Assembly (NCBI GenBank): GCA_947465495.1
Contig: CANIAS010000002.1
Coordinates: forward strand, 14,274 to 78,273
Origin: Candidatus Pollutiaquabacter sp.
GTDB lineage: Bacteria; Bacteroidota; Bacteroidia; AKYH767-A; 2013-40CM-41-45
DNA: 64,000 nt
Reading direction: 5' to 3'
Position numbers and translations under genes: made by a program. Below are positions 2,934-23,576 of this stretch, one piece after another; position 1 is the first letter of the stretch; the number at the start of each line of letters is the position of its first letter. Below the pieces are notes generated by a model, which worked only from the letters and a program-made list of their open reading frames with translations, made no database searches and was not told where the DNA came from.

Positions 2934-4853
2934 ATGAATCAAAAGCGAAACGTCCTTCTTTCCGCAACCTTACTTGCCTTTGCCATTTTCTTAGGTAGCA
3001 TTTACCTGCCAAATAGCATTCACGTAGAATTCCTCTACCCACTAATCGTACTACTTTCCATAACGCTGCACGATCGCCGTTCCACGTTTGATATCAGCGT
3101 AGGACTTACTATTCTTCTTGTCCTTGATTTTTTTATTTCCTCCGATTATACCGCACTTCAAACGCGAGTTATTCCTTCGTTACTTCCGATTCTCTTCGTA
3201 TGGAGCTTTACTTTCGCAGTATTAAAATACAAGGAATCACAATTGAAATTATTGCGTAGTACAGAGCACTTGAATGCCATGTTTCAATACGCAACAGAAG
3301 GCATCTTAATTAGCAATCAAAAAGGAGAGATCATACTTTCAAATCCCATGAGCTCGAAACAATTCGGCTATGAAGAAAACGAATTGTTAGGAAAACGAAT
3401 TGAAGACCTTGTTCCAAAACGGTTTGCCGAAAAGCACCCCAAAAACAGAACGGAATACTACGGAAATCCACACAACCGACCCATGGGTCAAGGAATGAAG
3501 CTCTTTGGAAGAAAAAAGGACGATCAGGAGTTTCCCATTGAAATAAGTCTAAGTTCATTCAAAATTGGTCAGGAATTATTCGTAATCAGCTTCATTATTG
3601 ATATAACTGAGCGCCATCGACAAGAGGAAGCTATCAATAAATCCAACGAAGAACTTGAATTCCGTGTATTGTCAAGGACTATGGAATTGGCGGCGGCGAA
3701 CAAATCACTTGAACAAGCAAATGACCATCTAAAAGCTGAAATGCAAGAGCGAAGTAACGTAGAAGAAGCACTTAGAGATAGTGAAAGACTATACAGTACT
3801 ATCGCTCACAATTTTCCAGATGGTATCATTTGCGTATTAAACCATGCCTTAGAGATTGTTTTTATCGATGGAAAAGAATTGGAGGAACTTAAAATCAACA
3901 ATTCCGATATGCATGGAAAATACTGGCGTTCCCTTAATCTATGCGCTGATGACAAACGCGATTACTTAGAAAGTGTTTTTCGAAAAGTATTTTCCTGGGA
4001 AAATGCAAACATGGAATGTGAATACAATCATCGTAATTATGCCTTAAATGCTGTTCCGCTACCAGATGACCGAGGAAATGTAAAGGAAATACTGCTTGTC
4101 ATTCGCAATATTACCAGAAGAAAAATAGCCGAACAAGAAATTTTAATCTCTTTAGAGAAAGAACGTAATTTAAATGAAATGAAATCGCGTTTCGTTTCGA
4201 TGGCATCGCATGAATTCCGTACACCATTAAGCACAATTCTTTCATCTATTCAACTTGTAGATCGCTATCAGGGTGCCGAGAATCGTGATAAACAGCTAAA
4301 ACACATTGATCGTATTAAATCTTCGGTTAAAAATCTTACTGAAATTCTAAACGATTTCTTGTCACTTGAAAAATTAGAAGCAGGAAAAGTAGAAGTACAA
4401 CTCAACAATGTAAACCTTGTAGAATTCTGCCATGAAATGAGCGAAGAGTTACAAGGAGTAGCTAAGGCTGGTCAGAAAATCATCTACACACATCAGGGAG
4501 GCGACAAAGTAATCCGTACCGACAAACAACTTTTGCGCAACGTGCTTATCAATCTACTTAATAATGCCATTAAATATTCCAAGGAAAACGAAAACATATA
4601 TTTCACGTCACTGGTCAACCATGAAATCTGCATAAACATTTCTGATAACGGAATTGGAATTCCCTTCGATGAACAACCTCAGCTTTTTGAACGTTTTTTC
4701 CGTGCCACCAACGCCAACAACATCCAAGGAACAGGACTAGGGCTTAACATTGTACAACGATATACTAAATTACTTCAGGGAAATATTTCTTTTACCAGTC
4801 AAGAAAACAAAGGAACTACATTCACCGTCCAATTACCTAACATTTTAAACTAA
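2934..4853 (+). CDS. Membrane-anchored PAS/PAC sensor histidine kinase
   Basis: 639 aa. It has 3-4 N-terminal hydrophobic helices, two PAS-like segments, the H-box SMASHEFRTPLSTI and an HATPase_c with NLLNNAIKYS, DNGIGIP and GTGLGLNIV. Confidence 0.9.
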   Translation: MNQKRNVLLSATLLAFAIFLGSIYLPNSIHVEFLYPLIVLLSITLHDRRSTFDISVGLTILLVLDFFISSDYTALQTRVIPSLLPILFVWSFTFAVLKYKESQLKLLRSTEHLNAMFQYATEGILISNQKGEIILSNPMSSKQFGYEENELLGKRIEDLVPKRFAEKHPKNRTEYYGNPHNRPMGQGMKLFGRKKDDQEFPIEISLSSFKIGQELFVISFIIDITERHRQEEAINKSNEELEFRVLSRTMELAAANKSLEQANDHLKAEMQERSNVEEALRDSERLYSTIAHNFPDGIICVLNHALEIVFIDGKELEELKINNSDMHGKYWRSLNLCADDKRDYLESVFRKVFSWENANMECEYNHRNYALNAVPLPDDRGNVKEILLVIRNITRRKIAEQEILISLEKERNLNEMKSRFVSMASHEFRTPLSTILSSIQLVDRYQGAENRDKQLKHIDRIKSSVKNLTEILNDFLSLEKLEAGKVEVQLNNVNLVEFCHEMSEELQGVAKAGQKIIYTHQGGDKVIRTDKQLLRNVLINLLNNAIKYSKENENIYFTSLVNHEICINISDNGIGIPFDEQPQLFERFFRATNANNIQGTGLGLNIVQRYTKLLQGNISFTSQENKGTTFTVQLPNILN

Positions 4854-4860
4854 CACTACC

Positions 4861-5916
4861 ATGAAAAAAATTTTATTGATTGAAGACAACAAAGAAATGC
4901 GCGAAAACACGTGCGAAATTCTGGAACTTGCCAACTACCAGGTGATTACAGCCAGTAATGGCAAAACAGGCGTAGACATTGCGCTAAAAGAGGTGCCGGA
5001 CCTTATCATATGCGATATTATGATGCCCGAATTAGACGGCTATGGTGTCTTATATCTTATCAGCAAGAACCCTACTACTTCGGGCATTCCATTTATTTTC
5101 CTAACCGCCAAAGCCGAAAAATCAGACATGCGTAAAGGCATGAGCATGGGCGCTGACGATTATTTAACAAAACCATTTGAAGAAATGGAATTGCTTAATG
5201 CTGTGGAAGCACGTATGCGGAAAAATGAATTATTCAAACGTGAGTTTTCTAAAAACGTAGACGGTTTAAATGAGTTTCTGGCAAATGCCAAGGGGATGGA
5301 GGAGCTTACGAAATTATCAGCAGAACGTAAACCTCACCATTACAAGAAAAAAGATGCTATCTACATGGAAGGTGACGAACCAACAGGGATTGTCTTCATT
5401 AACAAAGGAAAAATAAAAACGTTTAAGTCAAACAATGACGGCAAAGAATTCATTACAGGCATATATGGTGCCGGCGACTTTATCGGCTACAACGATCTAA
5501 TAGAAAATAAAGAACACAAAGAAACAGCTGAAACATTAGAAGACAGCGAAGTGGTAATCATCCCTAAGCAGGACTTCTTCTCACTACTCTACTCCAACCG
5601 TGATGTTGCCGCTAAGTTTATCAAACTACTTTCAAATAATCTCCAAGATAACGAGGAACGACTGTTAAATCTCGCGTATAATTCCGTGCGTAAACGCGTA
5701 GCCGATGCACTACTTAATTTGCAAGGTCGGTACACAATCGCGGGAAGTCCGCAACCTTTCAATGTATCTCGGGAAGATCTGGCAAGCATGGTAGGCACTG
5801 CGACAGAATCAGTTATCAGAACACTTTCTGATTTCAAGGAAGAAAAGTTAATCGAGATAAAAGATCGAAACATAGTCATCGCCAATACCGATCGCCTTAC
5901 ACGTCTCAAAAACTGA
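4861..5916 (+). CDS. Response regulator with a REC receiver fused to a cNMP-binding (Crp/Fnr) domain and a Crp-type HTH
   Basis: 351 aa. The REC domain reads KKILLIEDNKEMRE...DLIICDIMMPELDG...LTAK. A cNMP-binding beta-roll (IYMEGDEPTGIVFINKGKIKTF) follows, then a C-terminal HTH (SREDLASMVGTATESVIRTLSDF). The start is 8 nt after the kinase stop, so the two are probably one operon. Confidence 0.85.
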   Translation: MKKILLIEDNKEMRENTCEILELANYQVITASNGKTGVDIALKEVPDLIICDIMMPELDGYGVLYLISKNPTTSGIPFIFLTAKAEKSDMRKGMSMGADDYLTKPFEEMELLNAVEARMRKNELFKREFSKNVDGLNEFLANAKGMEELTKLSAERKPHHYKKKDAIYMEGDEPTGIVFINKGKIKTFKSNNDGKEFITGIYGAGDFIGYNDLIENKEHKETAETLEDSEVVIIPKQDFFSLLYSNRDVAAKFIKLLSNNLQDNEERLLNLAYNSVRKRVADALLNLQGRYTIAGSPQPFNVSREDLASMVGTATESVIRTLSDFKEEKLIEIKDRNIVIANTDRLTRLKN

Positions 5917-5998: not shown

Positions 5999-6433
5999 TC
6001 AGGCTATGGCTATTTCTTTCACCTTCTTGGCATACACCGCCGATTTAACAATTGACAATCGTAAGACACCATTCTCATAATTCGCCTTAATATCGTCTTC
6101 TTTGGCATTTTCAGGAAGTGTGAATGACCTTGAAAAGGATGAATAATTAAACTCTTTGCGAGTATAGTTCTTATCCTTGGTTTCCTTTTCAGATTTCTTT
6201 TCAGAACTAATGGTTAAGAGACCATCTGCCACTTTAACGTGAAAATCATCTTTTCGTAACCCAGGAGCCGCAAGCTCAATATCATAGGTCTTTTCAGTTT
6301 CAGAGACATTAACCGCAGGGACCCAATCGGAAGGAAACAAATCATCAAACCCTAAATTTTCACTTTCAAAAAAATCCGAAAGCACATTACGCATTACCGG
6401 AAAATACCCGTTACTTCTTTTCATGATTGACAT
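5999..6433 (-). CDS. Hsp20 / alpha-crystallin small heat-shock protein
   Basis: 144 aa. The alpha-crystallin core (YDIELAAPGLRKDDFHVKVADGLLTISSEKK...NGVLRLSIVK) is present. Confidence 0.85.
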   Translation of the reverse strand: MSIMKRSNGYFPVMRNVLSDFFESENLGFDDLFPSDWVPAVNVSETEKTYDIELAAPGLRKDDFHVKVADGLLTISSEKKSEKETKDKNYTRKEFNYSSFSRSFTLPENAKEDDIKANYENGVLRLSIVKSAVYAKKVKEIAIA

Positions 6434-6553
6434 AATAATTAATTTTTAAGTGTTAGAATAAAAAATAAATAACACTTCAAAACTACGCGAAGGTATCACC
6501 CTAACCGATGATGCCTATCAATGTCAATTTTGATTGATATCAGCGATTTGCCA

Positions 6554-7399
6554 TTAATCTAAAGGTCGATCAGTATATTTCAGGGACAACAACGGCAGCT
6601 CCACCCTATGCGACATTAATCGTGTAACGCTCGGATGAAACATGGATTCAGGAAAATGACGTTCATGTGTAAAAAGGACCAATAAATCGATTTTCATTTT
6701 TTTAATAAATTTTTCCAGCCCTTTAGAAACCACAGTATCCTTTGCAATGTATCCTGAAATTTTAGCATATTTTACGCTAGAGCGAATACGCTTAGTCATT
6801 TTATTAATGGCAAGATCATCGTGCAAAAGATGCTTATCATCTACAAACACAAAAGAAATTTCAGCATCAAATAGCGTGGCGAACGGTATGATCATGGATG
6901 CGGCCCGTATATTGTCTTCTTTGAGATCCGTGGAATAAGCTATTTTCTTAAACCCTTTGAATTTTACATTCATTGGAACCGTTAGAACCGCACAATGGGC
7001 ATCACGAATAACTTTTGCAGTAGTGCTTCCTACCAACATTCTGCGCCATTTGCTGGTACCGGTAGCGCCGACGATAATCAAATCCACACCTTTTTCATCG
7101 GCGAATGATACGATCTGATGATAAGAAACGCCTTCCGAAGAGACAGCCTCAGCTCTCAAACCAGGATGATTGCGTTTTAATTTATTTACCAAACGTAAAA
7201 GTTTCTTTTGAGACAGTTCATGCAACTGCTTGGTAGCATCACGAACTACGGTCATCGGGGCGTCGGTAAACATGGCCGGAACGTCATAAGCATGTTGAAT
7301 AATCAAATGTGCTTCTATGCGTACTGCTAATGCAGCGGCAAAATCCGCTGCAATCAGCGCGTTTTTCGAAAAATCAACCGGACACAGGATTAGTTTCAT
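6554..7399 (-). CDS. Universal stress protein, tandem UspA domains
   Basis: 281 aa. It has MKLILCPVDFSKNALIAADFA, GATGTSKWRRMLVGS and a second Usp half. Confidence 0.85.
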   Translation of the reverse strand: MKLILCPVDFSKNALIAADFAAALAVRIEAHLIIQHAYDVPAMFTDAPMTVVRDATKQLHELSQKKLLRLVNKLKRNHPGLRAEAVSSEGVSYHQIVSFADEKGVDLIIVGATGTSKWRRMLVGSTTAKVIRDAHCAVLTVPMNVKFKGFKKIAYSTDLKEDNIRAASMIIPFATLFDAEISFVFVDDKHLLHDDLAINKMTKRIRSSVKYAKISGYIAKDTVVSKGLEKFIKKMKIDLLVLFTHERHFPESMFHPSVTRLMSHRVELPLLSLKYTDRPLD

Positions 7400-7427
7400 C
7401 GCGTGCTTTTATAAATCTTTAAATTGA

Positions 7428-7631
7428 TTAAGCACGCAATTTATTTTGCAATTGACTGCTAAGTGCGCCTATCGCTTTGGAAAGCGCAAGGAGAGAAAGA
7501 AAGATGGCCAACAAGGCCACCATTAAAACACTATAAATGCCAAAATCATCATTTTGTACTGGAGCAGTCGACTGCGCAAAATTTAACAACGGAGTAATAA
7601 GAGTAAAGCAAATCAATAATAGGCGTTTCAT
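7428..7631 (-). CDS. Small hypothetical secreted/membrane protein
   Basis: 67 aa. A signal-peptide-like N-terminus (MKRLLLICFTLITPLLNFAQS) and a C-terminal hydrophobic helix are present. It sits 28 nt upstream of the Usp gene on the same strand. Only the ORF and hydropathy support it. Confidence 0.3.
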   Translation of the reverse strand: MKRLLLICFTLITPLLNFAQSTAPVQNDDFGIYSVLMVALLAIFLSLLALSKAIGALSSQLQNKLRA

Positions 7632-7836
7632 GACGAGTTTCTTTTTAACAATAATATAGTGACTCCCTTTAACCCATCATGACGAATATCAGTAAGTACA
7701 ATGAATTTGATCAATTTTATTTGTGAACTACATGTAATACTGTTAAAAAAAAACTGTAAACATCATGCATACATCTTGATATCGCTCATAAAATAATAAG
7801 CGTGCAAAGCATAGTTTTACAAAAAATATAATTAAA

Positions 7837-8061
7837 ATGGAAACAACATCTAACAACAACGGCCGCCTATTTGCAGCGCTATTAGGCGGTTTAGCAGCAG
7901 GAGCACTGCTTGGTGTACTACTGGCACCTAACAAAGGCTCTGAAACACGTCGTAAAATTGTCGATGAGACCAAAAAAGCCGGTGACAAAGTAAAAGGTAA
8001 GTTCCGAGAAGTTTATGAGGCGGTAAGCGGAAGCGGTGGACGAATGAACGACATGGCCTAA
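7837..8061 (+). CDS. YtxH-domain general-stress protein
   Basis: 74 aa. The N-terminal Gly/Ala-rich helix LFAALLGGLAAGALLGVLLAPNKGSETRRKI is followed by a charged tail, which is the YtxH pattern. Confidence 0.7.
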   Translation: METTSNNNGRLFAALLGGLAAGALLGVLLAPNKGSETRRKIVDETKKAGDKVKGKFREVYEAVSGSGGRMNDMA

Positions 8062-8069
8062 ATTAAATA

Positions 8070-8453
8070 ATGATTACTTTGCATAGAAATCATGCAACCA
8101 TGTCCGACAGTAATCACATCGACCAATTGGTGAGCAATACCAAAGAATACCTGGAAACCAGGGTAGAGTTGGTCAAGCTACAGATGATCGAAAAGGGAAG
8201 TGAAATGAGTGGCGCTGTAGTGGCCAACCTCACATTCATTTTCCTTTTCATGATCGTCCTTTCCTTCTTTAGCATAGCAGCAGCGCTATATTTAGGTGTC
8301 ATTTGGGGCGCATATTACTATGGTTTTCTTTTTGTTGGCGCGTGCTATTTGGCCGTCTGCTTACTTTTGTATTTCAATAAAGAAAGTTGGATCAAACGAC
8401 CTGTTTCCAACACCATCATCAAGGCCGTATTCAAAGAAACCGACCATGACTGA
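8070..8453 (+). CDS. Holin-like small membrane protein (the 'phage holin family' / Holin-X-like protein that accompanies YtxH in Bacteroidota)
   Basis: 127 aa with two hydrophobic helices. The real start is probably the ATG near 8100 (MSDSNH). It is conserved next to YtxH. Confidence 0.55.
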   Translation: MITLHRNHATMSDSNHIDQLVSNTKEYLETRVELVKLQMIEKGSEMSGAVVANLTFIFLFMIVLSFFSIAAALYLGVIWGAYYYGFLFVGACYLAVCLLLYFNKESWIKRPVSNTIIKAVFKETDHD

Positions 8454-8814
8454 ACATCGAATTCGAAACATTGATGAACTGCGTTCCGAAATACGCAGAA
8501 TGAAGCACCGTGCCAATGATCAGGAAAAACGAATCGCCGAAGACATTCAAGCCATCCGAGAAAGCCTTCGACCTGAAAACATACTCATTCGAGCACTGTC
8601 TAACATAACAGGAATCCAAATCAACAAAAGTGAGTTTTTGAAGAATGGTGTGTTAATGGGCATTGGTTTACTCCTCCAGCGCTTTGCTTTCAAATCGGAG
8701 AATGCCTTAGAACATAAAGTTTATCACTGGGTTGATCGATTATTCAATAAGTTGAAATCGTATGTGGCCCGTTTTACCAGTTCTCGTTCTGAAAAGGTAG
8801 ATGCGGAAAGCTGA
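8446..8814 (+). CDS. Hypothetical protein, third member of the YtxH operon
   Basis: The ATG at 8446 overlaps the upstream stop (ATGACTGA), indicating translational coupling. The product is 122 aa, charged and helical (MTEHRIRNIDELRSEIRR...). The longer track ORF from 8296 overlaps the previous gene and is rejected. Confidence 0.5.
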   Translation: MTEHRIRNIDELRSEIRRMKHRANDQEKRIAEDIQAIRESLRPENILIRALSNITGIQINKSEFLKNGVLMGIGLLLQRFAFKSENALEHKVYHWVDRLFNKLKSYVARFTSSRSEKVDAES

Positions 8815-8818
8815 TAGT

Positions 8819-9433
8819 TCAAACATGCAAAAGTGTAATCACCTGCTCGTCATTGACCTGCGGGAAATACGTATAAAACTCGCCTACTCCGACAAATTGC
8901 TCCGGTGTGTGTAAGCAGATAAATTCATCCACTTCCTTTTGAATTCGAACTGCTGCTTCGCGTGCTGCCACCGGAACTGCCACGATAATTTTTGTAGGGT
9001 TATATTTACGCAAGTATAAAACTCCCGCTAATAATGTTCGTCCAGTTGCTATTCCATCATCCACAATGATGACGGTTTTACCCAATAAATCTAACTGAAC
9101 ACTTTCTTGACCATATAAATTAGCGCGATCCTGGAGCATCCTGCGCAATCGGTATACTTCATTCTCCAAATACAAATTTGAAACAGGCTCCACCAAATCA
9201 TCCAGTAAAACTTGATCAAGTGAAACAGCGCCAATTGCATACTCTGTATTGGTAGGATGACCAATTTTTTTAATTAACAATGGCTTCAACGGCCAATGCA
9301 AATGATCCGCAAGTATTCTTCCTATCGGAACTCCGCCTCGGGGTATTGCAAAAACAACCCCATCACCTCCAATATACTTGCGCAGTAAGGGTATTAGCAA
9401 CTCAGCCGCGTGTTCGCGGTTTCGAAACTCCAT
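8819..9433 (-). CDS. Phosphoribosyltransferase (type I PRTase fold)
   Basis: 204 aa. The PRPP-binding loop VIIVDDGIATGRT is present, with FAIPRGGVPIG before it. Confidence 0.8.
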   Translation of the reverse strand: MEFRNREHAAELLIPLLRKYIGGDGVVFAIPRGGVPIGRILADHLHWPLKPLLIKKIGHPTNTEYAIGAVSLDQVLLDDLVEPVSNLYLENEVYRLRRMLQDRANLYGQESVQLDLLGKTVIIVDDGIATGRTLLAGVLYLRKYNPTKIIVAVPVAAREAAVRIQKEVDEFICLHTPEQFVGVGEFYTYFPQVNDEQVITLLHV

Positions 9434-9660: not shown

Positions 9661-9727
9661 TCAATTTTCTCACAATCTACAATGTGCCAGAATCCATAAG
9701 TATGACCTAAATCAGTAAATATGTAGA

Positions 9728-13721: not shown

Positions 13722-14774
13722 ATGAACTCCTCCGTAAAAATAACGCCAACCCTCAAACTCCTTCAGTTAATTGTATTTGCCAGTATCATACTATACTTTG
13801 GGAAGCCGATTTTTGTACCAATTAGCTTTTCCTTGTTGATAAGCTTCATACTCTACCCAATATGCCAAGCTCTTGAAAAAAAAGGTGTTCCTAGAGGATT
13901 AGCAATCGGATTCAATTTGCTATGGCTAAGCGCACTATTAGGACTAATCGTTTATCTCTTATTCTATCAATTCGGAAGGTTCATAAACGACTGGCCCGCA
14001 TTGAAACAAAAATTATCATTTGCTTATCATGAATTACAACATTACATATTTATAAAGACCGGCGTAACCTTACCAGAACAAGACAACTGGCTAAAACAAA
14101 CTATATCGCAATCATCAGGCAATGTGTTTAAATTCTTAAAGACGTTTATATACAATGCAGCCATCAACGTTGTGCTATTAATTCTTATACCTATACTGTC
14201 AGGATTAATTCTATATTCTAGAGAACGGTGGGTAAAAGTACTTTATATGTTGTTGCCAAATCTTGAACACCAAGAAATCAGAAACATCCTAAAAGAATCT
14301 ATCCACGCCTACTATAATTTCATCAAAGGAATGGGCACCGTATACATTGTGGTGGCAATTCTAAACTGTATTGGCTTAATCATCCTTGGAATACCACATG
14401 CCATTCTATTTGGATGCATCGCCTCTGTCCTCACATTCATACCGTACGTCGGCATCCTTGTTGCCTCCTTGTTACCAATTACAATTTCATGGCTAACTTT
14501 CGACTCCATCTGGTATCCCATAGGTGTTATCGTGATCTTTACAATAGTCCAGTACCTAGAAGCGAATGTGATCTTTCCTTTGGCAGTTAGTAGCCGACTC
14601 AGTTTAAACACCTTTATCACCATTGTTGTGATTTTAGTTGGTGGATTACTTTGGGGTGCAGCTGGCATGATCTTATTTATTCCATTCATCGGAATAATAA
14701 AGCTAATTGCCGATCGAAGCGAAAAACTCGCAGGCCTTTCGATGCTACTTGGGAACGGAAAAATTCATCCATGA
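13722..14774 (+). CDS. AI-2E family (PerM/YhhT-like) transporter
   Basis: 350 aa with about 8 TM helices and the typical AI-2E topology. Conserved FIPYVG and LLWGAAGMILFIPF segments are present. Confidence 0.75.
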   Translation: MNSSVKITPTLKLLQLIVFASIILYFGKPIFVPISFSLLISFILYPICQALEKKGVPRGLAIGFNLLWLSALLGLIVYLLFYQFGRFINDWPALKQKLSFAYHELQHYIFIKTGVTLPEQDNWLKQTISQSSGNVFKFLKTFIYNAAINVVLLILIPILSGLILYSRERWVKVLYMLLPNLEHQEIRNILKESIHAYYNFIKGMGTVYIVVAILNCIGLIILGIPHAILFGCIASVLTFIPYVGILVASLLPITISWLTFDSIWYPIGVIVIFTIVQYLEANVIFPLAVSSRLSLNTFITIVVILVGGLLWGAAGMILFIPFIGIIKLIADRSEKLAGLSMLLGNGKIHP

Positions 14775-14776
14775 AA

Positions 14777-15547
14777 TTATCGGAATTGGCTTTGAGGAAT
14801 TGAACCCACCCGTTCCATATATTTGGAGGCAAAGTCATATCCGACTTTAAAAATATCCTCCATATCTACTTTATCAAAAACACCAAATCGACACAAGTCA
14901 GGAGGCTCAAGGTATAAATCGCATAATTTCTTACGCGCTTTGACGGTCTGCCAAGCACCCAGGGACATCAATCGATCCATTAAGGCAAAGGCAGTATTAA
15001 CAGATCGTCCTTTGACCCATGGATTTACATGCACTCCTACCAACGTTACATCTTCTTCGAGAAAAGGCTCCACCGGTAAGTTATTAAGTACTCCGCCATC
15101 TACCAATTGATTTCCATCAATCAAAACAGGTTCGAACAACACTGGGATGGATGAAGAAGCTAGCAGTGGCCGGATCAATTCTCCTGCCGTAAAAAAATCG
15201 GAATGACCTTGAGTGAGATCGCTGCTGGAAACAATTAAAGGGAAATTCAATCGTTCAAATCTATTATCGGGGAAATAATCTAACAACACATTGCCTAATT
15301 TCTCCAATGTCATTACCGGATGACCATTTTGAGGTTGTAGCAGTTGAAACAGATCTCGTTTTATAAGAATTTGCAGAATTTCATCAGGTGTATATCCTCC
15401 CGCCAAAAAAGCACCTGCTACCGCTCCGCTACTAACACCAGAAATCGCCTCTAGCACCATTCCCCGTTGTTGCAGTGCTTTCACTACTCCCAAATGTGCC
15501 ACTCCACGGACACCACCGCCAGATAGTACTAGATTTATAGGTTGCAT
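14777..15547 (-). CDS. Patatin-like phospholipase
   Basis: The oxyanion hole LVLSGGGVRG, the serine lipase motif GVSSG and a downstream DGG are all present. 256 aa. Confidence 0.9.
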   Translation of the reverse strand: MQPINLVLSGGGVRGVAHLGVVKALQQRGMVLEAISGVSSGAVAGAFLAGGYTPDEILQILIKRDLFQLLQPQNGHPVMTLEKLGNVLLDYFPDNRFERLNFPLIVSSSDLTQGHSDFFTAGELIRPLLASSSIPVLFEPVLIDGNQLVDGGVLNNLPVEPFLEEDVTLVGVHVNPWVKGRSVNTAFALMDRLMSLGAWQTVKARKKLCDLYLEPPDLCRFGVFDKVDMEDIFKVGYDFASKYMERVGSIPQSQFR

Positions 15548-15556
15548 AAGCTGAAA

Positions 15557-16672
15557 TTAGGCATGAAGTGCAACGGTTGCATGCTTTCGCAAGGACTGCC
15601 GATAAGAAACGAATTCCATAATATTTTCAAAATCGAGATATCCCTTAAAAGAACCATTTTCTTTGACCAGTAGCAGAGCAGTTTGATCTGCTTGCATGGA
15701 AGCAAATACCTTTTCCAACGGATCATCGGCTTCAGCTGTTTGAATGCCACGTCTCATACAGGTCTCCACAAAGACATCCTGTCCATGCAAACCTATTTCT
15801 TCAAACAATAACTTACGATCAATTGTACCAACCGGTAAATCCCCCTTAAATACCACAAAACGCTCAGTTTGCGTATGTAACAATTGGTCGACCACTTCGC
15901 GAAGTGTAGAATCTGCAGCAACGGCATCCATGTTAGGCATAATGACATCCTTTACTTTGGCACCTCGCAAGAACTCACGTGATATACTCTGAGTAAGCTC
16001 CATCTGCGCTGCTAACAGAACAAAAACTCCCACAAAAGCCAAGATAGCGTTAGAATATAAACCCGATAATATCATGATCATGGCAATCAACTGACCGATC
16101 CTTACAGCTACGCGTGTAGCCTTTAGACGATCTAATCGCAAGGATAGCAGTCCATGCAAAATCCTACCGCCATCCATGGGATAAGCGGGAATTAAATTAA
16201 AAAGCGCCAGCACTACGTTTGCATAGTAAAAGTGAGCCATCCAATTCCTTATAGTGAGTTCACTCATCACAGAAAACGCTGGCACACCTGAATCAATGAA
16301 AAAGAAAACGTATATCAAAACAGCCAATATGACATTGACTAATGGTCCGGCTAAAGAAACATAAACTTCCTCTTTAGGCACATCGGGTAATCTATCCATG
16401 CGTGCCATTCCCCCAATGGGTAGCAGTACAATATCACGCGTAGTGCATCCATAACGGCGGGCCGTTAGCGCATGTCCTAACTCATGCAAGACGACGGTTG
16501 CAAATACAGCCAATACTAACAGGAATAAGAGCACTGTGGATTCGAATCCTGATTTTAAATAAGCCTGTGACAAACCCAGGTAAATGAAAAGCAACAAAAA
16601 GGTCCAATGGACATAAATGCCAATACCGAATAAACTAATCAGCCTCCACGCTCCTTTTACTGCTTGTTTCAT
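15557..16672 (-). CDS. Site-2 protease family (M50) zinc metallopeptidase with a C-terminal CBS pair
   Basis: HELGHAL (HExxH) lies in a TM helix, a second-site NLIPAYPMDGG is present, and CBS-like domains occupy the C-terminus. 371 aa. Confidence 0.85.
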   Translation of the reverse strand: MKQAVKGAWRLISLFGIGIYVHWTFLLLFIYLGLSQAYLKSGFESTVLLFLLVLAVFATVVLHELGHALTARRYGCTTRDIVLLPIGGMARMDRLPDVPKEEVYVSLAGPLVNVILAVLIYVFFFIDSGVPAFSVMSELTIRNWMAHFYYANVVLALFNLIPAYPMDGGRILHGLLSLRLDRLKATRVAVRIGQLIAMIMILSGLYSNAILAFVGVFVLLAAQMELTQSISREFLRGAKVKDVIMPNMDAVAADSTLREVVDQLLHTQTERFVVFKGDLPVGTIDRKLLFEEIGLHGQDVFVETCMRRGIQTAEADDPLEKVFASMQADQTALLLVKENGSFKGYLDFENIMEFVSYRQSLRKHATVALHA

Positions 16673-17067
16673 TTCAACGTAGTTATTTTCACAGCGAGTT
16701 TCTTTAACAAATCAAGTTCGACAGGTTGTAATCCTCTTGCTGCCACAGCTGTATCCTTCAACAAATGAAGTGATCTTTTCTTAGTTTCTTCAGAAATACG
16801 AACGCCTTTATTCTCCTTCACAAAATTGTCAAAGGAAGAAAGTATCTCGTGCGGCTTTGCATTTTTCTCAAGCATATTTTTAAAAGCAATCTTAGCAATC
16901 AGCACCTCGGCGGCAGCTTCACTATTTTCAGCGTCTTGAGGTCTCATCAACCATTCCCGGAACATGGTGTTTACCCGATTGATTTCCGCTTCTTGAATGG
17001 TGCCGTCAATTGCAGCTACTGCATATACTAACTGACCTAATTGCTCATAGAATTTTCGATGTGACAT
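16669..17067 (-). CDS. TerB-family (tellurite-resistance-like) protein
   Basis: 132 aa, all-helical. VAAIDGTIQEAEINRV matches the TerB pattern. The stop overlaps the S2P start (ATGA). Confidence 0.65.
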   Translation of the reverse strand: MSHRKFYEQLGQLVYAVAAIDGTIQEAEINRVNTMFREWLMRPQDAENSEAAAEVLIAKIAFKNMLEKNAKPHEILSSFDNFVKENKGVRISEETKKRSLHLLKDTAVAARGLQPVELDLLKKLAVKITTLK

Positions 17068-17164
17068 AGCGATGGAGTTTTAAAGGGGAGAAACCCTTAC
17101 ATCAGTATTAAATTTATTTTTGAAAACATAATTAGAATTGAAATGGGAATAAAATTGCACTCAA

Positions 17165-17998
17165 TTAAACTGTACCAGGAAAGACGATAAGCGGAAGTCT
17201 GGTGTGATATGCCATCCTTTTAGTTAAACTTCGTTCAAAGAGTTTACGCATGAATGGCCGATGTCGAATTGTCATTGCAACCATATCCGCATCCACTTCT
17301 TCCAAATAATGATTAATGGAAGAGTATACATCAGTCCCATCCAATAACTTAAAACTTATTTTACTGAAATGGCTATCTTCACGTATACTTTCCATGAATT
17401 TCTCAATGGCATCAAATTCAAATGTGCGATCGTATTTACCACTTGTAATATGAAGGAGTATGATTTCAGCTTGCAGAACGCGAGCAAAATCGATTACCTG
17501 TTCAATATTGCCAAAATCGCCTTCCTCATAACTGGTAGCAAAAACAATACGATCAATCGTCTTCTTTGTAGACAGTTCAGGAATGGCAATAACCGGACAT
17601 GTACTATGTTCAAACACGGAAGCAGTGATGGTGCCAATCAACGCTTCGCGTAAGCCAGAGGCCCCCTTCGTACCCATGATGATTAAATCTGCGGATGATT
17701 CAATGGCAGATTTTGGAATTTCATCTTCAGCGTACCCGGCCGAAGCATGAACATTGAATTTCAAGGCTGGGTACTTTTTCAAATATCGCTTACGGACATC
17801 GCCAAGCCCATCCAGTGAATTTTTCTCCAATTCTGCATCCGAAGGAATGGCTAATGGGAGATCAGTAGCATAAATTGGCGACACGTATGAATGGTGCAAG
17901 ACAATTTCAGCCTTTAACTTTAAGCTTAGCCCGCAAGCAAAATCCAATGCATGGTCAGCATCACGAGAGAAGTCGGTAGGGACCAGTATTTTTTTCAT
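17165..17998 (-). CDS. Universal stress protein, tandem UspA domains
   Basis: 277 aa. It has MKKILVPTDFSRDADHALDFA and GTKGASGLREALIGT. Confidence 0.85.
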   Translation of the reverse strand: MKKILVPTDFSRDADHALDFACGLSLKLKAEIVLHHSYVSPIYATDLPLAIPSDAELEKNSLDGLGDVRKRYLKKYPALKFNVHASAGYAEDEIPKSAIESSADLIIMGTKGASGLREALIGTITASVFEHSTCPVIAIPELSTKKTIDRIVFATSYEEGDFGNIEQVIDFARVLQAEIILLHITSGKYDRTFEFDAIEKFMESIREDSHFSKISFKLLDGTDVYSSINHYLEEVDADMVAMTIRHRPFMRKLFERSLTKRMAYHTRLPLIVFPGTV

Positions 17999-18027
17999 AT
18001 CATTATTTTCATAAGATGAAGAGCTAA

Positions 18028-19113
18028 TTAATAATACTTGACGACTGCTATTTTCTGGAAGTCAGTCAATCGACCATTGGAAACAAATTGTATGTCTCCC
18101 TTACTTCGTAATACCATCTCAATGAGATCATCGACTGCATCAGAAATATTACGGTGGGAGCCAGGAAGAAGTTGATCCACGTGAATGGACATACCATCTT
18201 CCCGGAAATAGGCTGGTTGCACATAGTCTTTTTCAACCAACAACAACCTACATTGCCCCTCCGTAACCGCACGCCAGACCTCCTCCACGCCGGCTGCGTA
18301 ACTTCCTTTACTTACCGCTGAGGCCAGCGACAAAAGGCTTTTCTCCTCTACTTCTTGGTTAACTTTATCTAAAATAGGCTCCAACAACTTTCTTAACTGC
18401 GGTGATGTAGCATGTTCGTAATTACCCTCCACAAAACCAATGGTATTGCGCTCATTAGCAGACTGAGCTTTGATGTAGCCTAAAAACTTCTTGTCGCCCA
18501 TAAAAACGATTGGCGTATCGGAATTGCCTAACGCTTGATGAACCGCATGATCTATTAGCCGCAAAAAATTTCGTATGTTTTTTTCGTTATATGCCTTCGT
18601 ATCAAGGTATTCCCATCCTGGTAATGAATGATTATTTGTTACATCAGCGATGTTATCGGGCATATCCTTGAAAACTACCGGAAAGAAGATTTTTCCATAA
18701 ACCATAGAGGTCCGCACTCCATTCTTTGTAATAGCAACCAATAAAAACTGCTTATTCAGTTTGACGGAATAGACCAAGTCACGCACTTCAAAAGAATCGT
18801 CGACAACTACTTTTTCTGTGACGTTGAATGGCAACTGAACCAATCGAGCATGATGAGGAGAAACGTAAATAGCAAGGCCTTCAGAAAGTTGGGTATAATT
18901 GATTTCGTCCACAGTATCATGTAACCTTCTCATCATCTCTTCTGTTTTTTGTTTACTGTAACGATCATGGAGTTGACTTTGCACTTGTGATACCAAATCA
19001 ATCATATGTTCTCGATCCAACTTGAAAGCAGGATATTGAGGGTGAGTTGGGACGACAATTGAAATCGCAGGAAATTCTTTTTGACCGATCAAGTCTTTTT
19101 CGAGGAGTTGCAT
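18028..19113 (-). CDS. eRF1/Pelota-like protein lacking GGQ (a bacterial baeRF-type release-factor homolog). Hypothetical.
   Basis: 361 aa. Three segments align by eye to eRF1 domains 2-3: FLLVAITKNGVRTSMVYG ~ FGFIVIDGSGALFGTL; GFVEGNYEH...KVNQEVEEKSL ~ ISYGGENGF...NVKFIQEKKL; KGSYAAGVEEVWRAVTEGQCRLLLV ~ [23 protein letters not shown]. No GGQ is present in the equivalent loop. Confidence 0.5.
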   Translation of the reverse strand: MQLLEKDLIGQKEFPAISIVVPTHPQYPAFKLDREHMIDLVSQVQSQLHDRYSKQKTEEMMRRLHDTVDEINYTQLSEGLAIYVSPHHARLVQLPFNVTEKVVVDDSFEVRDLVYSVKLNKQFLLVAITKNGVRTSMVYGKIFFPVVFKDMPDNIADVTNNHSLPGWEYLDTKAYNEKNIRNFLRLIDHAVHQALGNSDTPIVFMGDKKFLGYIKAQSANERNTIGFVEGNYEHATSPQLRKLLEPILDKVNQEVEEKSLLSLASAVSKGSYAAGVEEVWRAVTEGQCRLLLVEKDYVQPAYFREDGMSIHVDQLLPGSHRNISDAVDDLIEMVLRSKGDIQFVSNGRLTDFQKIAVVKYY

Positions 19114-19333
19114 GGCAGATTTATTTTAGATTGAAACTCCTGTAAACGTACGCGTCGAAAAACAGAACACCGATGACTGCGGACAAGGCAAGCAGTGATT
19201 TTGCTCACCCATTTTTAAAAACACTAATTTGATGCGGCAACGCGCTATTGTATAAATAGTCACTATAAATCAATTCTGGAAATCGTGGATTAAAACACGA
19301 ATTTGAACGGATTTTTTTATATTTTTAGTCTCG

Positions 19334-20098
19334 ATGAAAAAGAGACTTACTATTGATTTAATTTACAACTTGGTTTTAGCAGGACTACTATCATGCATGT
19401 TGCCTGGCTGTGAAAATGACACTGTTTATCCATTATCTACTACCAGCACTCTTAAGATTAATGTTTCTAATACGGTAAATGGAACATCTTTGCAACTGGG
19501 GCAAATGGCATACACAAACGTATCAGGAAACAATTATCAAGTTGATCTGTTACGATATTACTTGTCCAATTTCTCGCTTGTGAAATCCGATAGCAACTAT
19601 TATAACCTCCGGAATTACGACTTAATAGACGCCGAAAATGCGGAAAGTTGCAAGATCACCGGCGACAACGTTCCCAACGGGAAATACACCTACCTGTGTT
19701 TTTATGTCGGTGTGGATAGCACCCATAACAATTCCATTGATCAAACCGGCGACCTAGATCCACTGTATGGTATGTTTTGGCCCTGGAATACCGGTTATAT
19801 ATTTTTTAAGCACGAAGGGTATTATGTGGACTCTTTAGGATCGACCAATAACCTACTATTCCATTATGGAACAGCGCCTGCATTGGTTACAGTGGCCATT
19901 CCTGTTAATATTGAACTATCGGGTAGCACTTGCAGCATCGATCTGCAATTTGATTTAAATTCGGTGTATAACACACCGACCCCAATTGATTTTAACGTGG
20001 ACAATTATCATCAATCTGCCTCGGGTAGCGAACGAGATTGGATTGAAACCATGAAGCAAAATCTCTCAACCGCCTTTACCATCACCGCCGTACACTAA
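19334..20098 (+). CDS. MbnP-family lipoprotein (periplasmic copper-binding partner of di-haem peroxidase MbnH). Putative.
   Basis: 254 aa. A lipoprotein signal is present with lipobox Cys (LLSCMLPGC). It lies 8 nt upstream of a di-haem cytochrome c peroxidase, which is the canonical MbnP-MbnH pairing. The assignment rests on context and size, not on verified motifs. Confidence 0.5.
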   Translation: MKKRLTIDLIYNLVLAGLLSCMLPGCENDTVYPLSTTSTLKINVSNTVNGTSLQLGQMAYTNVSGNNYQVDLLRYYLSNFSLVKSDSNYYNLRNYDLIDAENAESCKITGDNVPNGKYTYLCFYVGVDSTHNNSIDQTGDLDPLYGMFWPWNTGYIFFKHEGYYVDSLGSTNNLLFHYGTAPALVTVAIPVNIELSGSTCSIDLQFDLNSVYNTPTPIDFNVDNYHQSASGSERDWIETMKQNLSTAFTITAVH

Positions 20099-20105
20099 TT
20101 TCAAC

Positions 20106-21155
20106 ATGGACTTTCGCAGGGTACTCTTTTTAATAGCATCGATCTACTTAGTCATAGTGGCATGCAACAAAGACGAAGTAGAATCCGTCAGTAACGGCCC
20201 TACGCCATATCAGCTTAGTATTCCGTCATCGCTGCCACCGATGAATATTCCAGGATCAAATCCACTGACCGTGGAAGGCATCGCACTCGGAAGAAAATTG
20301 TTTTACGACCCATTATTATCGGGCAACAATATCCAATCTTGTGGAGACTGCCATAATCAGGCATTCGGCTTTACAGACAACAATTTTGCACTCAGTACTG
20401 GGATTGATGGAATCGATGGAACTAGAAATTCGATGCCGCTGTTTAATTTAGGATATGCTTCTAATTTCTTTTGGGACGGTGGTGCCACCACGCTTGAATC
20501 GCAAGTTGTAGGACCGATTACCAATCCGATTGAGATGCACGAAGACCTTACCAATTGTGTCAACGAGCTTAAATCGCAACCAGACTACCCGGCTCTATTC
20601 AAAGCTGCCTTTCAAACTGATTCGATTACGATTTCTATGGTAATGAAAGCCATTGCCCAATTCGAACGCACCCTGATTTCGGGCAGCTCAAAATACGATC
20701 AGTCAGTAAAAGGACAGGTCGCGTTGACTTCTCAAGAAGAGAGCGGAAAGCTAGTATTCCTCTCTGCCGCAAAAGGCGATTGCACCCACTGCCACATTTT
20801 AGGCAGCACCTTCACCGATTTTGCCTACAAGAATAATGGATTAGATTCTATTTCAGCGGACAGTGGCCGGGCTCGTATTACACTCAACCCAACTGACCTC
20901 GGTAAATTCAAAACACCTAGTTTACGTAACATCGCGGTAACTCCACCCTACATGCACGATGGTCGATTTTCTACCTTGCAACAGGTGATAGAGCACTACA
21001 ATACCGGTTTTCATTACGCAGCCAATCTAGATCCAAATCTTCAAAATGCAGTGAAAGGTCGAATGAGCCCCCAGGAGATTAGTGATCTGATTGCTTTTTT
21101 AATGACCTTGACCGATACCGATTTTCTGTCCAATCCTGCTTACGGACATCCGTAA
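20106..21155 (+). CDS. Di-haem cytochrome c peroxidase (CCP/MauG/MbnH family)
   Basis: 349 aa. There are two CxxCH haem motifs (CGDCHNQAF and CTHCHIL) and the conserved MauG/CCP segment PSLRNIAVTPPYMHDG. Confidence 0.85.
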   Translation: MDFRRVLFLIASIYLVIVACNKDEVESVSNGPTPYQLSIPSSLPPMNIPGSNPLTVEGIALGRKLFYDPLLSGNNIQSCGDCHNQAFGFTDNNFALSTGIDGIDGTRNSMPLFNLGYASNFFWDGGATTLESQVVGPITNPIEMHEDLTNCVNELKSQPDYPALFKAAFQTDSITISMVMKAIAQFERTLISGSSKYDQSVKGQVALTSQEESGKLVFLSAAKGDCTHCHILGSTFTDFAYKNNGLDSISADSGRARITLNPTDLGKFKTPSLRNIAVTPPYMHDGRFSTLQQVIEHYNTGFHYAANLDPNLQNAVKGRMSPQEISDLIAFLMTLTDTDFLSNPAYGHP

Positions 21156-21239
21156 TTATCAATTTTTCTTCTGTTAAAAGCTCCCTATTAACTCCAGGAG
21201 CTTTTTACTATATTTCGAGTTGTTAAACATACCCTGTCC

Positions 21240-23576
21240 ATGAAAAAACACCTATTGTTGCTAGTTGTGCTGTTTTTGATCCAATCACAAAGCTACGCAG
21301 CCTGTCAGACTGGTTACACTGAGGTCATCGTTCAGATTATTCCTGACAGTTGGCCGAATGAGATTTCCTGGCAACTCAGTGAATCCGGAGGAAACATCCT
21401 TCAGAGTGGAACTTCAGAAGGAGATACACTGTGTGTGCCTGTCGGATCCTGTCTGGAGTTTGTCATCAACGACAGCTATGGCGATGGAATTTACGCTCCA
21501 GGCGGTTATTGGCTTTACGTTGATGGCATTCAAGTTGCGACTGGCTACAACTACGGCTCGCAGGATATGGTAGCTCTGAATTGTCCGCCCGGCATGCATT
21601 GCACATCGCCATTAGAAATTACCTACGGTACCCATTGGGCAACCTTCGAAGACACGTGGTTTGTATATACGGCTGACTCATCTGGCACCTATAACTTAAC
21701 CACCTGCGATAGCAACAGCTGCAACACACAACTTTGGTTATACACCAGTTGCCCGACCCTTCCTTATACGGATGGACCGATGGGATCCTACATCTACAAC
21801 GACGATAATAATTGCGGTACCCAAGCCAGTATGAATTTCACCCTGGTAGCTGGAACTACGTACCTCATTCGTATTGGCGACAACGGAGGCGACTGCTCCG
21901 ATTCAATCAATTTTAGCTTCTCTTATTTCGGACCAGTCATGGGTTGTATGGACCCCTCGGCCTGCAATTTCAACCCGCTGGCTACAGTATCCGACAATTC
22001 ATGTATTTATTACCCAAATCCGATGTGTCAAGGCCCTGACCTTCAGTTTGACTCACTGTCGTTCATCAATAGCATCTCCTTACAAACCTTCAGCGCATCT
22101 ACATGCGACGTAGCCGAAGGATGTGTGACTGGATATGGTACACGATACGTATTGTCCTTTACTTCCAAAATTAACAACATAGGGACTCAGGATTATTACA
22201 TTGGAACACCCTCGTCTCAACCAGGCATGTTCAATACCAATAATTGTCACGGACATGCACACTACGAAGGGTACGGCGACTATCGACTGTACGATTCCTT
22301 GGGAACCATTGTACCGGCAGGCCATAAAAACGGCTACTGTGTGATGGACTTATGCGGTATGGGCCAATACAACTGTGGCGACATGGGCATTTCAGCAGGA
22401 TGCTATGATGTGTATGGCGCCGGCACACAATGCCAGTGGATCGACATCACCGACGTAGCAGATGGCGACTATCGCTTGGCCATCCTCATCAATTCCCAAC
22501 ACCTCCCGGATGCGTTGGGTCATTACGAAACCAATCATCTCAACAACGCCCTTCAGATTTGCATTCGAATTACGCATAACGCACAAGGTGTTCCTAGCTA
22601 CTCTATACTTCCAAATTGTACTCCTTACGTCGATTGCAACGGAGTACCAGGAGGAGTATCAGAAACAGATTGCAATGGAATTTGTGGCGGACCTTCTGTA
22701 TACGGTGACCTTAATTCGGATGCCTTATTGAACACAGCAGATATTACTAGTTACATGGATCAAGTAGAATCCCAATTCTCTGCTACAACGTGTAATGATC
22801 TGAACGGAGACGGAGAGCTAACCATATTCGATGTAGCACAATCAAATTGGTGTTATTACGGCAATCCGAATATTCAAGGCGGCACTCACAATCATTGCCA
22901 ATTTCCGCGCAACCTAATTAGCTTCACTGACACTTCCGAATTGAGTATAGTCGCATTCGATCCTATTAACAACTACATTGATGTTGGCTTGAAAAATCCG
23001 CGCGTAGGGATCAAAGGATACCAATTTACGGTGAGTGGCATCGATGTGTTTTCTTACATCAGCATGATCAACCCATTGCAATTCCAGGCAGACGTGCGAT
23101 ACATTCCTGCTACCCATGAGGTCATTGCATTTGGCCTGAACGACTCCACGATTCCTAGATCTACATTACCACGTCCATTGATCCGTCTGTTCTACAACAA
23201 TGTAACAGATACAGTGGTTTGTATCAGTTCGATTTCTGACATCATGAACGAACGTGGGGAAGGTACCATACCCGCACTCGCAAACAACTGTCGCAGTTTC
23301 AGCACAACCAATGTAAGTTCCCTGTACAAAAACGCTGCACTGATGGTGGTTCCAAATCCTGCGAAGGACGAAGCTTACTTACACATATCAGAAGGATTCA
23401 ATCCGGGTGCTACCATCATGATGGTCGACATAACTGGAAAACAATTCCAAGTTTCTGTAGCGCAATTGCGAAAAGATTGGGTGAAATTAGACTTGAAGGA
23501 ACTTCCAAATGGAGTTTATATGATTCGAATTCTGGATGGCGATTATGCCGGTACAGCGCGAGTTGTAAAACTCTAA
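21240..23576 (+). CDS. Secreted multidomain protein with a lysyl-oxidase-like copper amine oxidase catalytic domain, dockerin-like Ca-binding repeats and a T9SS C-terminal sorting domain
   Basis: 778 aa with a signal peptide. The LOX copper/LTQ core is [18 protein letters not shown] (vs human LOX CHQHYHSMDEFSHYD), [10 protein letters not shown] (vs GHKASFCLED) and [27 protein letters not shown] (vs [27 protein letters not shown]). The dockerin-like repeats are [13 protein letters not shown] and [13 protein letters not shown]. The T9SS CTD is [14 protein letters not shown]...GVYMIRI...RVVKL. Confidence 0.8.
   Translation: [778 protein letters not shown]

Follow-up and report, generated by a model that had tools for sequence, protein, structure and literature searches.

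A Bacteroidota homologue of the ribosome hibernation factor Balon and the conserved tandem-box promoter upstream of its gene

Introduction

During stress, bacterial ribosomes are inactivated and protected by hibernation factors such as HPF, RaiA and RMF (PMC10901736), small proteins that sit at the 30S decoding or mRNA channel. Balon, which is unrelated to these, was established in 2024 as an A-site ribosome hibernation factor by cryo-electron microscopy, genetics and biochemistry (Helena-Bueno et al. 2024, PMC10901736). It belongs to family 3 of the bacterial release-factor-like (baeRF) proteins, which were divided into families in 2019, with a predicted role alongside HPF in translation shutdown (PMC6514570). 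Here, we analyse a Balon-family gene of the Bacteroidota, located at 18028-19113 on the minus strand of a 64-kb window, that is, the whole stretch of 64,000 nucleotides studied (Candidatus Pollutiaquabacter sp., assembly GCA_947465495.1, contig CANIAS010000002.1, positions 14,274 to 78,273). Coordinates below are those of the window.

Balon of Psychrobacter urativorans (AOC03_06830) has been seen bound to the ribosome of that organism in PDB entries 8rd8, 8rdv and 8rdw (PMC10901736). It sits in the A site of ribosomes, vacant or translating, irrespective of mRNA, and contacts A1492 and A1913 through a loop of its N-domain that carries the HP motif (PMC10901736 and its Supplementary Fig. 5). 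In place of the GGQ loop it has a lasso loop that wraps A2602, traps the tail of bL27 and leaves the catalytic centre inert; the loop is kept out of that centre and Balon-bound ribosomes retain the nascent chain (PMC10901736). A beta-hairpin insertion in the C-domain binds EF-Tu in its guanosine diphosphate (GDP) form, and the mycobacterial homologues behave alike (PMC10901736); a two-strand insert in this domain is carried by baeRF families (PMC6514570). Balon is present in about 20% of bacteria, typically within stress operons (PMC10901736). P. urativorans Balon and the mycobacterial proteins Msmeg1130 and Rv2629 are the only members for which ribosome binding, recruitment of EF-Tu and a physiological role have been demonstrated. 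A 2025 preprint regards the ribosome-hibernation strategies of Bacteroidetes as under-appreciated.

A divergent member of the Balon family

The gene is an open reading frame (ORF) with an ATG start that encodes 361 residues. It lies exactly where a sequence-only reading of this DNA had placed it, on the minus strand, which that reading had left unsaid. The protein matches Pfam baeRF_family3 (PF18845) with 77.7 bits (E 1.8e-21; gathering cut-off 31.5), with weaker cross-matches to baeRF families 8, 11 and 7. It also matches NCBIfam NF052287, 'AOC03_06830 family ribosome hibernation factor', with E 1.8e-69 and 234.9 bits, residues 8-361 aligning to positions 4-361 of the profile. When the single protein was searched against PDB sequences, chain B of 8rd8, 8rdv and 8rdw was the sole meaningful match (8rd8_B, E 9.5e-25, residues 6-361), and a profile of 44 family members reached 8rd8_B with E 1.7e-62. 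The sequence of P. urativorans Balon, as reconstructed from the printed PDB alignment, falls within PF18845 as well (105.6 bits). The family is large: an exhaustive profile search retrieved 8,881 representatives of 50%-identity clusters at E<=1e-3 and 6,306 at E<=1e-10.

By sequence, the window gene is a Bacteroidota member of the Balon (baeRF family 3) proteins, a known kind of protein and a divergent example of it. Like P. urativorans Balon, with which it aligns collinearly over the full length, it has three domains, an insertion in the C-domain and a setting in a stress operon, and both proteins lack NIKS and GGQ. Neither GGQ, GG nor NIKS occurs in the window protein, and GGQ and NIKS are missing from all 44 aligned homologues. 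The sequence-only reading had proposed a baeRF-type protein that probably engages ribosomes or peptidyl-tRNA and cannot hydrolyse by way of GGQ. The type assignment is borne out by PF18845 and by the structural model described below; the proposed behaviour is supported, as a prediction, by the family, the fold and the lack of GGQ.

Fold and predicted ribosome-contacting loops

With the family alignment as input, AlphaFold2 gave a model (predicted local distance difference test score, pLDDT, 85.5; predicted template modelling score, pTM, 0.76) that divides approximately into an N-domain (residues 1-119), a middle, RNase H-like domain (residues 120-236) and a C-domain (residues 237-361). The top matches of a Foldseek search against the PDB are ribosome-bound Balon structures, with template modelling (TM) scores of 0.78-0.82 and E about 1e-28; for 8rdw_B, E is 2.2e-28 and TM is 0.82/0.81 over 369 columns. 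The mycobacterial proteins Msmeg1130 (TM 0.77-0.79) and Rv2629 (TM 0.73), represented by 8v9j, 8v9k and 8v9l, share the same fold. Unlike in the window protein, their C-domain insertions are larger, and in sequence they are distant (E 1.2e-4 with the family profile; only 14 bits with NF052288).

Three regions of the model are candidate counterparts of the parts of Balon that touch the ribosome or EF-Tu. The first is a loop of the middle domain (residues 147-171; 18601-18675, minus strand), which by model topology and hhalign register is the equivalent of the GGQ loop and is the candidate for the lasso-loop region of Balon. It runs between a strand (residues 142-146) and a helix (residues 172-195), contains no Gln, and varies in sequence and length across the family. 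Within it lies HSLPGWEY (residues 162-169; 18607-18630), the motif that the sequence-only reading had put in the place of GGQ. The pattern HS[LF]PGW[DE]Y is shared by the 16 homologues that are closest among the 44 (41-57% identity), a few of which depart from it slightly, and the remaining aligned homologues have other sequences and lengths at this position. At residues 161-165, in the HSLPG loop, the pLDDT falls below 50, and this is the only disordered internal segment of the model.

The second region is the N-domain loop THPQYP (residues 23-28; 19030-19047, minus strand), a candidate decoding-centre loop at the site of the HP motif. In a gapless alignment it faces THREHP of Balon, and the surrounding loops are of equal length (THPQYPAFKLD and THREHPANDQD). 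The third is an insertion in the C-terminal, Pelota-like domain (residues 297-324; 18142-18225, minus strand). It forms short beta-strands in the model (residues 301-303 and following), aligns to residues 308-335 of Balon with a two-residue gap, and by these model strands and this alignment corresponds to the beta-hairpin through which Balon binds EF-Tu and to the two-strand insert of the baeRF proteins.

The first clue to this protein had been a likeness, noticed by eye, to domain 2 and the start of domain 3 of eukaryotic eRF1. This holds in part. Pfam eRF1_1, eRF1_2 and eRF1_3 gave no match to the window protein even at E<=10, so that of the two kinds of profile suggested for comparison the baeRF one scored above its cut-off and the eRF1 ones did not. 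In hhalign, the family profile reached human eRF1 (identical to PDB 1dt9_A) with a non-significant E of 0.094, and a profile of 18 metazoan eRF1 sequences, which are 85-100% identical to one another and thus give the profile little depth, with a non-significant E of 0.15. The sole alignment found does cover the same region, pairing residues 179-316 with eRF1 197-350 (helix alpha5 and the LVLAGS strand, then the last part of domain 2 and the first part of domain 3). It sets NFLRLIDHAV against NYVRKVAETA in helix alpha5, IVFMGD against LVLAGS, and, as a third segment, GVEEVWRAVTEGQCRLLLV against a 19-residue stretch of eRF1. Extended without gaps, this register places eRF1 GGQ (183-185) opposite P165-G166-W167. 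The GGQ loop of eRF1 presumably has the same strand, loop and long helix topology as the window loop at 147-171; together with the register, this indicates that the sequence-only reading had placed the GGQ loop correctly.

The structural comparison is far stronger. Foldseek matches the model to aRF1 (4af1, E 2.7e-18) and to eRF1 chains (E about 1e-16 to 1e-13), with TM about 0.5, as the sequence-only reading had anticipated for the eRF1/Pelota fold, and more weakly to Pelota/Dom34 (E 7e-10 to 2e-5, TM 0.22-0.40). Because the sequence matches are insignificant and the fold match lies far above chance, the link to eRF1 rests on fold rather than sequence; judged from the model, homology to eRF1 is real at the level of the fold. 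The window protein thus compares with aeRF1/eRF1 as a homologue with the same three-domain architecture and a weak hhalign alignment in the correct register that lacks GGQ, NIKS and any Pfam eRF1 match and superposes poorly overall, and it is not expected to read stop codons or release peptides.

A conserved tandem-box promoter

The protein itself is a known kind, and the less expected part of the locus is a conserved stress-type promoter. When the upstream regions of 14 orthologous Balon loci were aligned, two conserved TGA-N6-TCA palindromes appeared, 22 nucleotides apart from start to start, and after them the Bacteroidetes -7 element TAnnTTTG. In the window, these conserved columns delimit a promoter region at 19143-19207 on the minus strand. 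It consists of box 1, TGAGCAAAATCA (19196-19207), box 2, TGTCCGCAGTCA (19174-19185), and, 30-37 nucleotides before the Balon ATG, the Bacteroidetes-type -7 element TACGTTTA (19143-19150). The spacing from box 2 to the -7 element is 23 nucleotides.

The pattern is rare by chance and recurs in the window at stress genes. Three tandem copies occur, against 0.24 expected, and none of 100 shuffles reached three. They lie upstream of Balon, of an Hsp20 gene, and of a small ORF followed by a second universal stress protein (Usp) gene. The Hsp20 gene (5999-6433, minus strand) has its tandem boxes at 6509-6542 and a -7 element, the region of boxes and -7 element spanning 6479-6542 and the whole unit 5999-6542. 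The second Usp gene (6554-7399, minus strand) is preceded on the same strand by the small ORF, which encodes 67 residues with an apparent signal peptide (7428-7631), and then by tandem boxes at 7680-7713 within a box region at 7650-7713, for a unit of 6554-7713. A single box followed after 23 nucleotides by TAnnTTT likewise has three copies, with an expectation of 0.06. They precede a third Usp gene (1899-2774, minus strand; box and -7 element 2793-2834, unit 1899-2834), the Hsp20 gene again, and a gene for a 74-residue protein (7837-8061, plus strand; box and -7 element 7777-7818, unit 7777-8061) that we call YtxH-like from reading its sequence.

The same architecture is found across the phylum. 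Among 80 species-representative genomes with a relative of the window protein, nearly all of them Bacteroidota with a few Chloroflexota, Planctomycetota and Abditibacteriota bins, 53 carry tandem boxes upstream of Balon, and in 32 of these 53 loci TAnnTTT starts exactly 23 nucleotides past box 2. In about 874 kb of loci there are 96 exact tandem copies, 49 of which precede Balon; only 8 of the 96 have no gene start within 260 nucleotides. From the geometry we infer a class II-type Crp/Fnr activator site near -41.5 and a second site near -63.5. Judging by the sequence pattern, a Crp/Fnr-family activator at the two tandem TGA-N6-TCA boxes probably turns on the Balon operon.

Other promoter signals were less informative. 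A generic sigma-70 scan of 14400-19500 returned promoter-like sites at or below chance frequency and is uninformative for Bacteroidota promoters. The 7-mer AATTGAT, seen in four upstream regions, was dropped, as its 33 matches compare with 23.8 expected and 7 of 100 shuffles reached 33. We consider a box-like site at 9673-9714, 240 nucleotides upstream of a phosphoribosyltransferase gene (8819-9433, minus strand), doubtful and do not claim it, because it is too distant from the start codon and mismatches the -7 element.

The gene for the 74-residue YtxH-like protein belongs to a unit on the plus strand that also encodes a 127-residue Holin-X-family membrane protein and a 172-residue protein without a family match. 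With the minus-strand small ORF ahead of the second Usp gene, it makes up a divergent pair of small units of the stress type at 7428-8814.

Gene cluster and its conservation

The gene following Balon, 29 nucleotides downstream on the same strand, encodes a tandem Usp (17165-17998, minus strand; PF00582, E 4.3e-30, in two stretches) that is probably co-transcribed with it. Then come, all on the minus strand, a TerB-like protein of 132 residues (16669-17067; Pfam TerB, E 0.0015, under the cut-off), a membrane metalloprotease of the site-2-protease (S2P) type with a CBS domain (15557-16672; Peptidase_M50, PF02163, E 4.8e-26; CBS, E 1.2e-8) and a patatin-like phospholipase, the last same-strand gene of the cluster (14777-15547; PF01734, E 2.5e-35). 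The sequence-only reading had listed these same neighbours; the TerB label is the weak one, although 3 of 10 orthologues match TerB, with a best E of 5.5e-6. The TerB-like gene ends within the start of the S2P-CBS gene: its stop codon and the start codon of the latter overlap by four nucleotides (16669-16672), which suggests translational coupling, and the pair is kept in several relatives. In this lineage, Balon probably heads an operon whose further genes are the tandem Usp and then the TerB-like, S2P-CBS and patatin genes. These neighbours differ from those of the P. urativorans gene. No intrinsic terminators were found in a scan of 14400-19500, which is compatible with a five-gene operon and no proof of one.

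The sequence-only reading had suggested examining the conservation of the Usp and TerB neighbours across Bacteroidota, and the two fared differently. Usp is the commonest neighbour cluster of Balon (32 of 80 loci) and in 26 of the 76 informative species loci it is the immediate downstream neighbour on the same strand. Of these, 14 fall among the 15 loci of the clade at 41-54% identity and 12 among 55 relatives whose identity is about 30%, most of them Chitinophagaceae. The TerB-like protein (7 of the 80 loci), S2P (6) and patatin (4) are encoded 4 kb or less from Balon chiefly in close relatives. The more distant relatives, again mostly Chitinophagaceae, have other partners: a 224-residue BON/OsmY-like protein (20 loci), whose gene often has its own tandem box 65-75 nucleotides upstream, a DEAD-box helicase that lies downstream of Balon on the same strand (15 loci), and Hsp20 (11-18 loci). 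These three clusters were assigned by reading sequences and, for Hsp20, by similarity to the window Hsp20 as well. The Usp, BON-like and Hsp20 neighbours agree with the stress operons reported for Balon (PMC10901736).

Some of the records in this comparison carry unexpected names. Metagenome-assembled genomes with Bacteroidota-type Balon loci are titled Streptomyces griseus, Citrobacter sp., Chryseobacterium gleum, Chitinophaga pinensis and Sphingobacterium thalpophilum, and at least the Streptomyces and Citrobacter titles look like mislabelled bins.

On the other side of the Balon promoter, a copper-related cluster (19334-23576, plus strand) is divergent from Balon, and the intergenic region with the tandem boxes is common to both. 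It encodes an MbnP-like protein, an MbnH/MauG-like di-haem peroxidase and a lysyl-oxidase-domain protein with a type IX secretion system (T9SS) sorting tail; in relatives, such clusters add a large PKD/MopE copper-binding protein.

Probable role in ribosome hibernation and alternative roles

Taken with what is known of its homologues, the window protein is very likely a non-hydrolytic A-site ribosome hibernation factor of the Balon type, its ribosome binding, EF-Tu recruitment and physiological role being predicted by homology. It would be a bacterial descendant of the archaeo-eukaryotic release factor aeRF1. Under stress, it would enter the A site of ribosomes, vacant or still translating and irrespective of mRNA, with the N-domain loop THPQYP touching the decoding centre. 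The middle-domain loop at residues 147-171 would lie beside the peptidyl-transferase centre and catalyse no peptide release, and the C-domain insertion at residues 297-324 would recruit EF-Tu in the GDP form. Translation would then pause, and the ribosome would be protected until conditions improve.

Several points weigh against this reading. Identity to the experimentally studied Balon is 21-23%, and the NF052287 score is below the curated equivalog cut-off of 330, so strict orthology to Balon is not established; family membership holds. The GGQ-equivalent loop falls about 8 residues short of that of Balon and has its own conserved motif, and where Balon has H27-P28, its likely HP dipeptide, the window protein has Y27-P28; a His-Pro is present at residues 24-25. 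Contacts with the decoding centre and those with the peptidyl-transferase centre may therefore be different. RaiA/HPF, the most frequent neighbour of Balon in the 2024 study (PMC10901736), was not found in the window or in 91 loci by phmmer with E. coli HPF and RaiA as queries, a search of limited sensitivity. The promoter positions derive from a consensus -7 element rather than from a mapped transcription start. Finally, we found no experimental study of a Bacteroidota member in the literature, and in this respect the description of the protein as essentially uncharacterised stands; for the family as a whole it does not, given the 2019 definition and the 2024 structures.

Other roles for such a protein have been considered. 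One is that of a non-catalytic rescue factor that, like Dom34/Pelota, recognises stalled ribosomes and promotes their splitting or recycling rather than their storage. Rescue is among the roles proposed for baeRF-1 proteins in 2019 (PMC6514570), Pelota/Dom34 belongs to the same superfamily and, like the window protein, has no catalytic Gln, and its structures are significant matches in Foldseek. However, the model superposes on Balon with TM 0.82 and on Pelota/Dom34 with 0.40 at most, and neither an ABCE1-like gene nor one for the Hbs1-like partner GTPase is present in the cluster. The promoter is common to Hsp20 and Usp genes, not to quality-control genes. The solved homologues bind vacant and translating ribosomes without regard to mRNA, keep the nascent chain and act as hibernation factors that store ribosomes instead of splitting them. 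We consider a rescue role improbable.

Still less probable is a part in conflict or anti-phage defence, in which the patatin phospholipase would be the effector of a release-factor-like protein that senses or blocks ribosomes. The sequence-only reading had suggested a function in stress or conflict, and some release-factor radiations have been tied to biological conflicts (PMC6514570). The stress half is supported by the cluster and by the promoter common to the Hsp20 and Usp genes. As for conflict, PADLOC gave weak matches of the patatin to 'phospholipase effector' and lipase models of the cyclic-oligonucleotide-based antiphage signalling system (CBASS) type, all far under the curated cut-offs, nothing for Balon, the TerB-like protein or S2P, and a chance-level Cas12a match for Usp. 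Patatin accompanies Balon in just 4 of the 80 species loci, the promoter boxes are conserved and shared with housekeeping stress genes, and no integrase or transposase was present among the window proteins scanned. GC content is uniform across the region (0.39-0.47), and this flat profile also speaks against an island acquired by horizontal transfer.

An active alternative release factor or peptidyl-tRNA hydrolase using a non-GGQ motif is extremely unlikely: the aeRF1 fold is there with all three domains, and a few baeRF families, family 10 among them, have retained a conserved Gln and are possibly catalytic, but the loop at 147-171 contains no Gln, its variation in sequence and length is of the sort linked in 2019 to catalytically inactive families (PMC6514570), and the equivalent loop of Balon stays outside the catalytic centre with the nascent chain kept.

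A candidate regulator and a possible dormancy regulon

If the Balon-type hibernation factor is under a Crp/Fnr-family activator, the window offers a candidate. A PAS histidine kinase gene (2934-4853, plus strand) is followed by a gene encoding a fusion of a receiver domain, a cyclic-nucleotide-binding (cNMP) domain and a Crp-type helix-turn-helix domain (4861-5916, plus strand; both by Pfam, unit 2934-5916). The fusion is the only Crp-type protein in the window and sits among the box-bearing stress genes. Its recognition helix retains E-x3-R, a pattern characteristic of CRP and FNR. In five other species loci (L031, L033 with two copies, L038, L055 and L071), full-length orthologues are encoded no more than 6 kb from Balon. 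On this evidence from gene content and position, the PAS kinase and the receiver-cNMP-Crp fusion are a candidate regulator pair for the boxes.

The pair resembles known systems. FixK2 of rhizobia has a TTGAT-N4-ATCAA-type box as its target. It is described as a CRP/FNR-type factor that FixLJ induces under microoxia. FixLJ-FixK2 and the DosRST system of mycobacteria, which govern low-oxygen and dormancy regulons, both use a sensor kinase and a response regulator to drive Usp and Hsp20-type genes, and tandem boxes are given as a hallmark of DevR/DosR promoters (PMC3177182). Unlike in those systems, the receiver domain in the window is fused directly to the cNMP/Crp module. The regulator of the mycobacterial Balon homologues is DosR, which is of the NarL type and not of the Crp/Fnr type.

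The likeness to mycobacteria extends to the genes under control. Rv2624c is presumably a Usp, and we take Rip3 (Rv2625c) to be an M50 protease with CBS domains. Both belong to block 8 of the DosR regulon of M. tuberculosis (Rv2623-Rv2631), which also comprises Rv2629 and Rv2623; there Rv2623 is a stress protein, and a Usp according to a cited reference, Rv2624c is listed as a stress-response protein and Rip3 as a metalloprotease. These partners are of the same kinds as those in the window, and Balon is therefore found together with Usp and an S2P-type protease in a second phylum as well.

Tentatively, and as a reading somewhat less likely than not, we suggest that hibernation by Balon may be one output of a conserved dormancy regulon of Bacteroidota that is marked by the tandem boxes. 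The PAS kinase and the fusion regulator would be its driver, the fusion acting as a one-protein analogue of FixJ-FixK or as a functional analogue of DosR. Balon, several Usp genes, Hsp20 and the BON-like and YtxH-like proteins would be controlled together, and the pairing of Balon with Usp and the S2P-type protease would represent a functional module. The HS[LF]PGW[DE]Y loop would serve for lineage-specific docking at the peptidyl-transferase centre. A description of such a regulon in Bacteroidetes was not found in the literature.

Implications

By itself, the protein adds little: a widespread and experimentally defined family of hibernation factors is now also seen in an uncultured Bacteroidota lineage. 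The locus shows the setting of Balon in Bacteroidota genomes, where its partner is a tandem Usp and, in this lineage, also the TerB-like, S2P-CBS and patatin proteins. The lineage-specific loop, the Crp/Fnr-type stress promoter and the candidate regulator are testable leads and not established facts. The promoter architecture, being sharply defined and phylum-wide, could serve to predict the whole stress or dormancy regulon together with its regulator, and the boxes and the candidate regulator make the question of ribosome hibernation in Bacteroidetes testable in culturable relatives, e.g. Terrimonas and Flavihumibacter.

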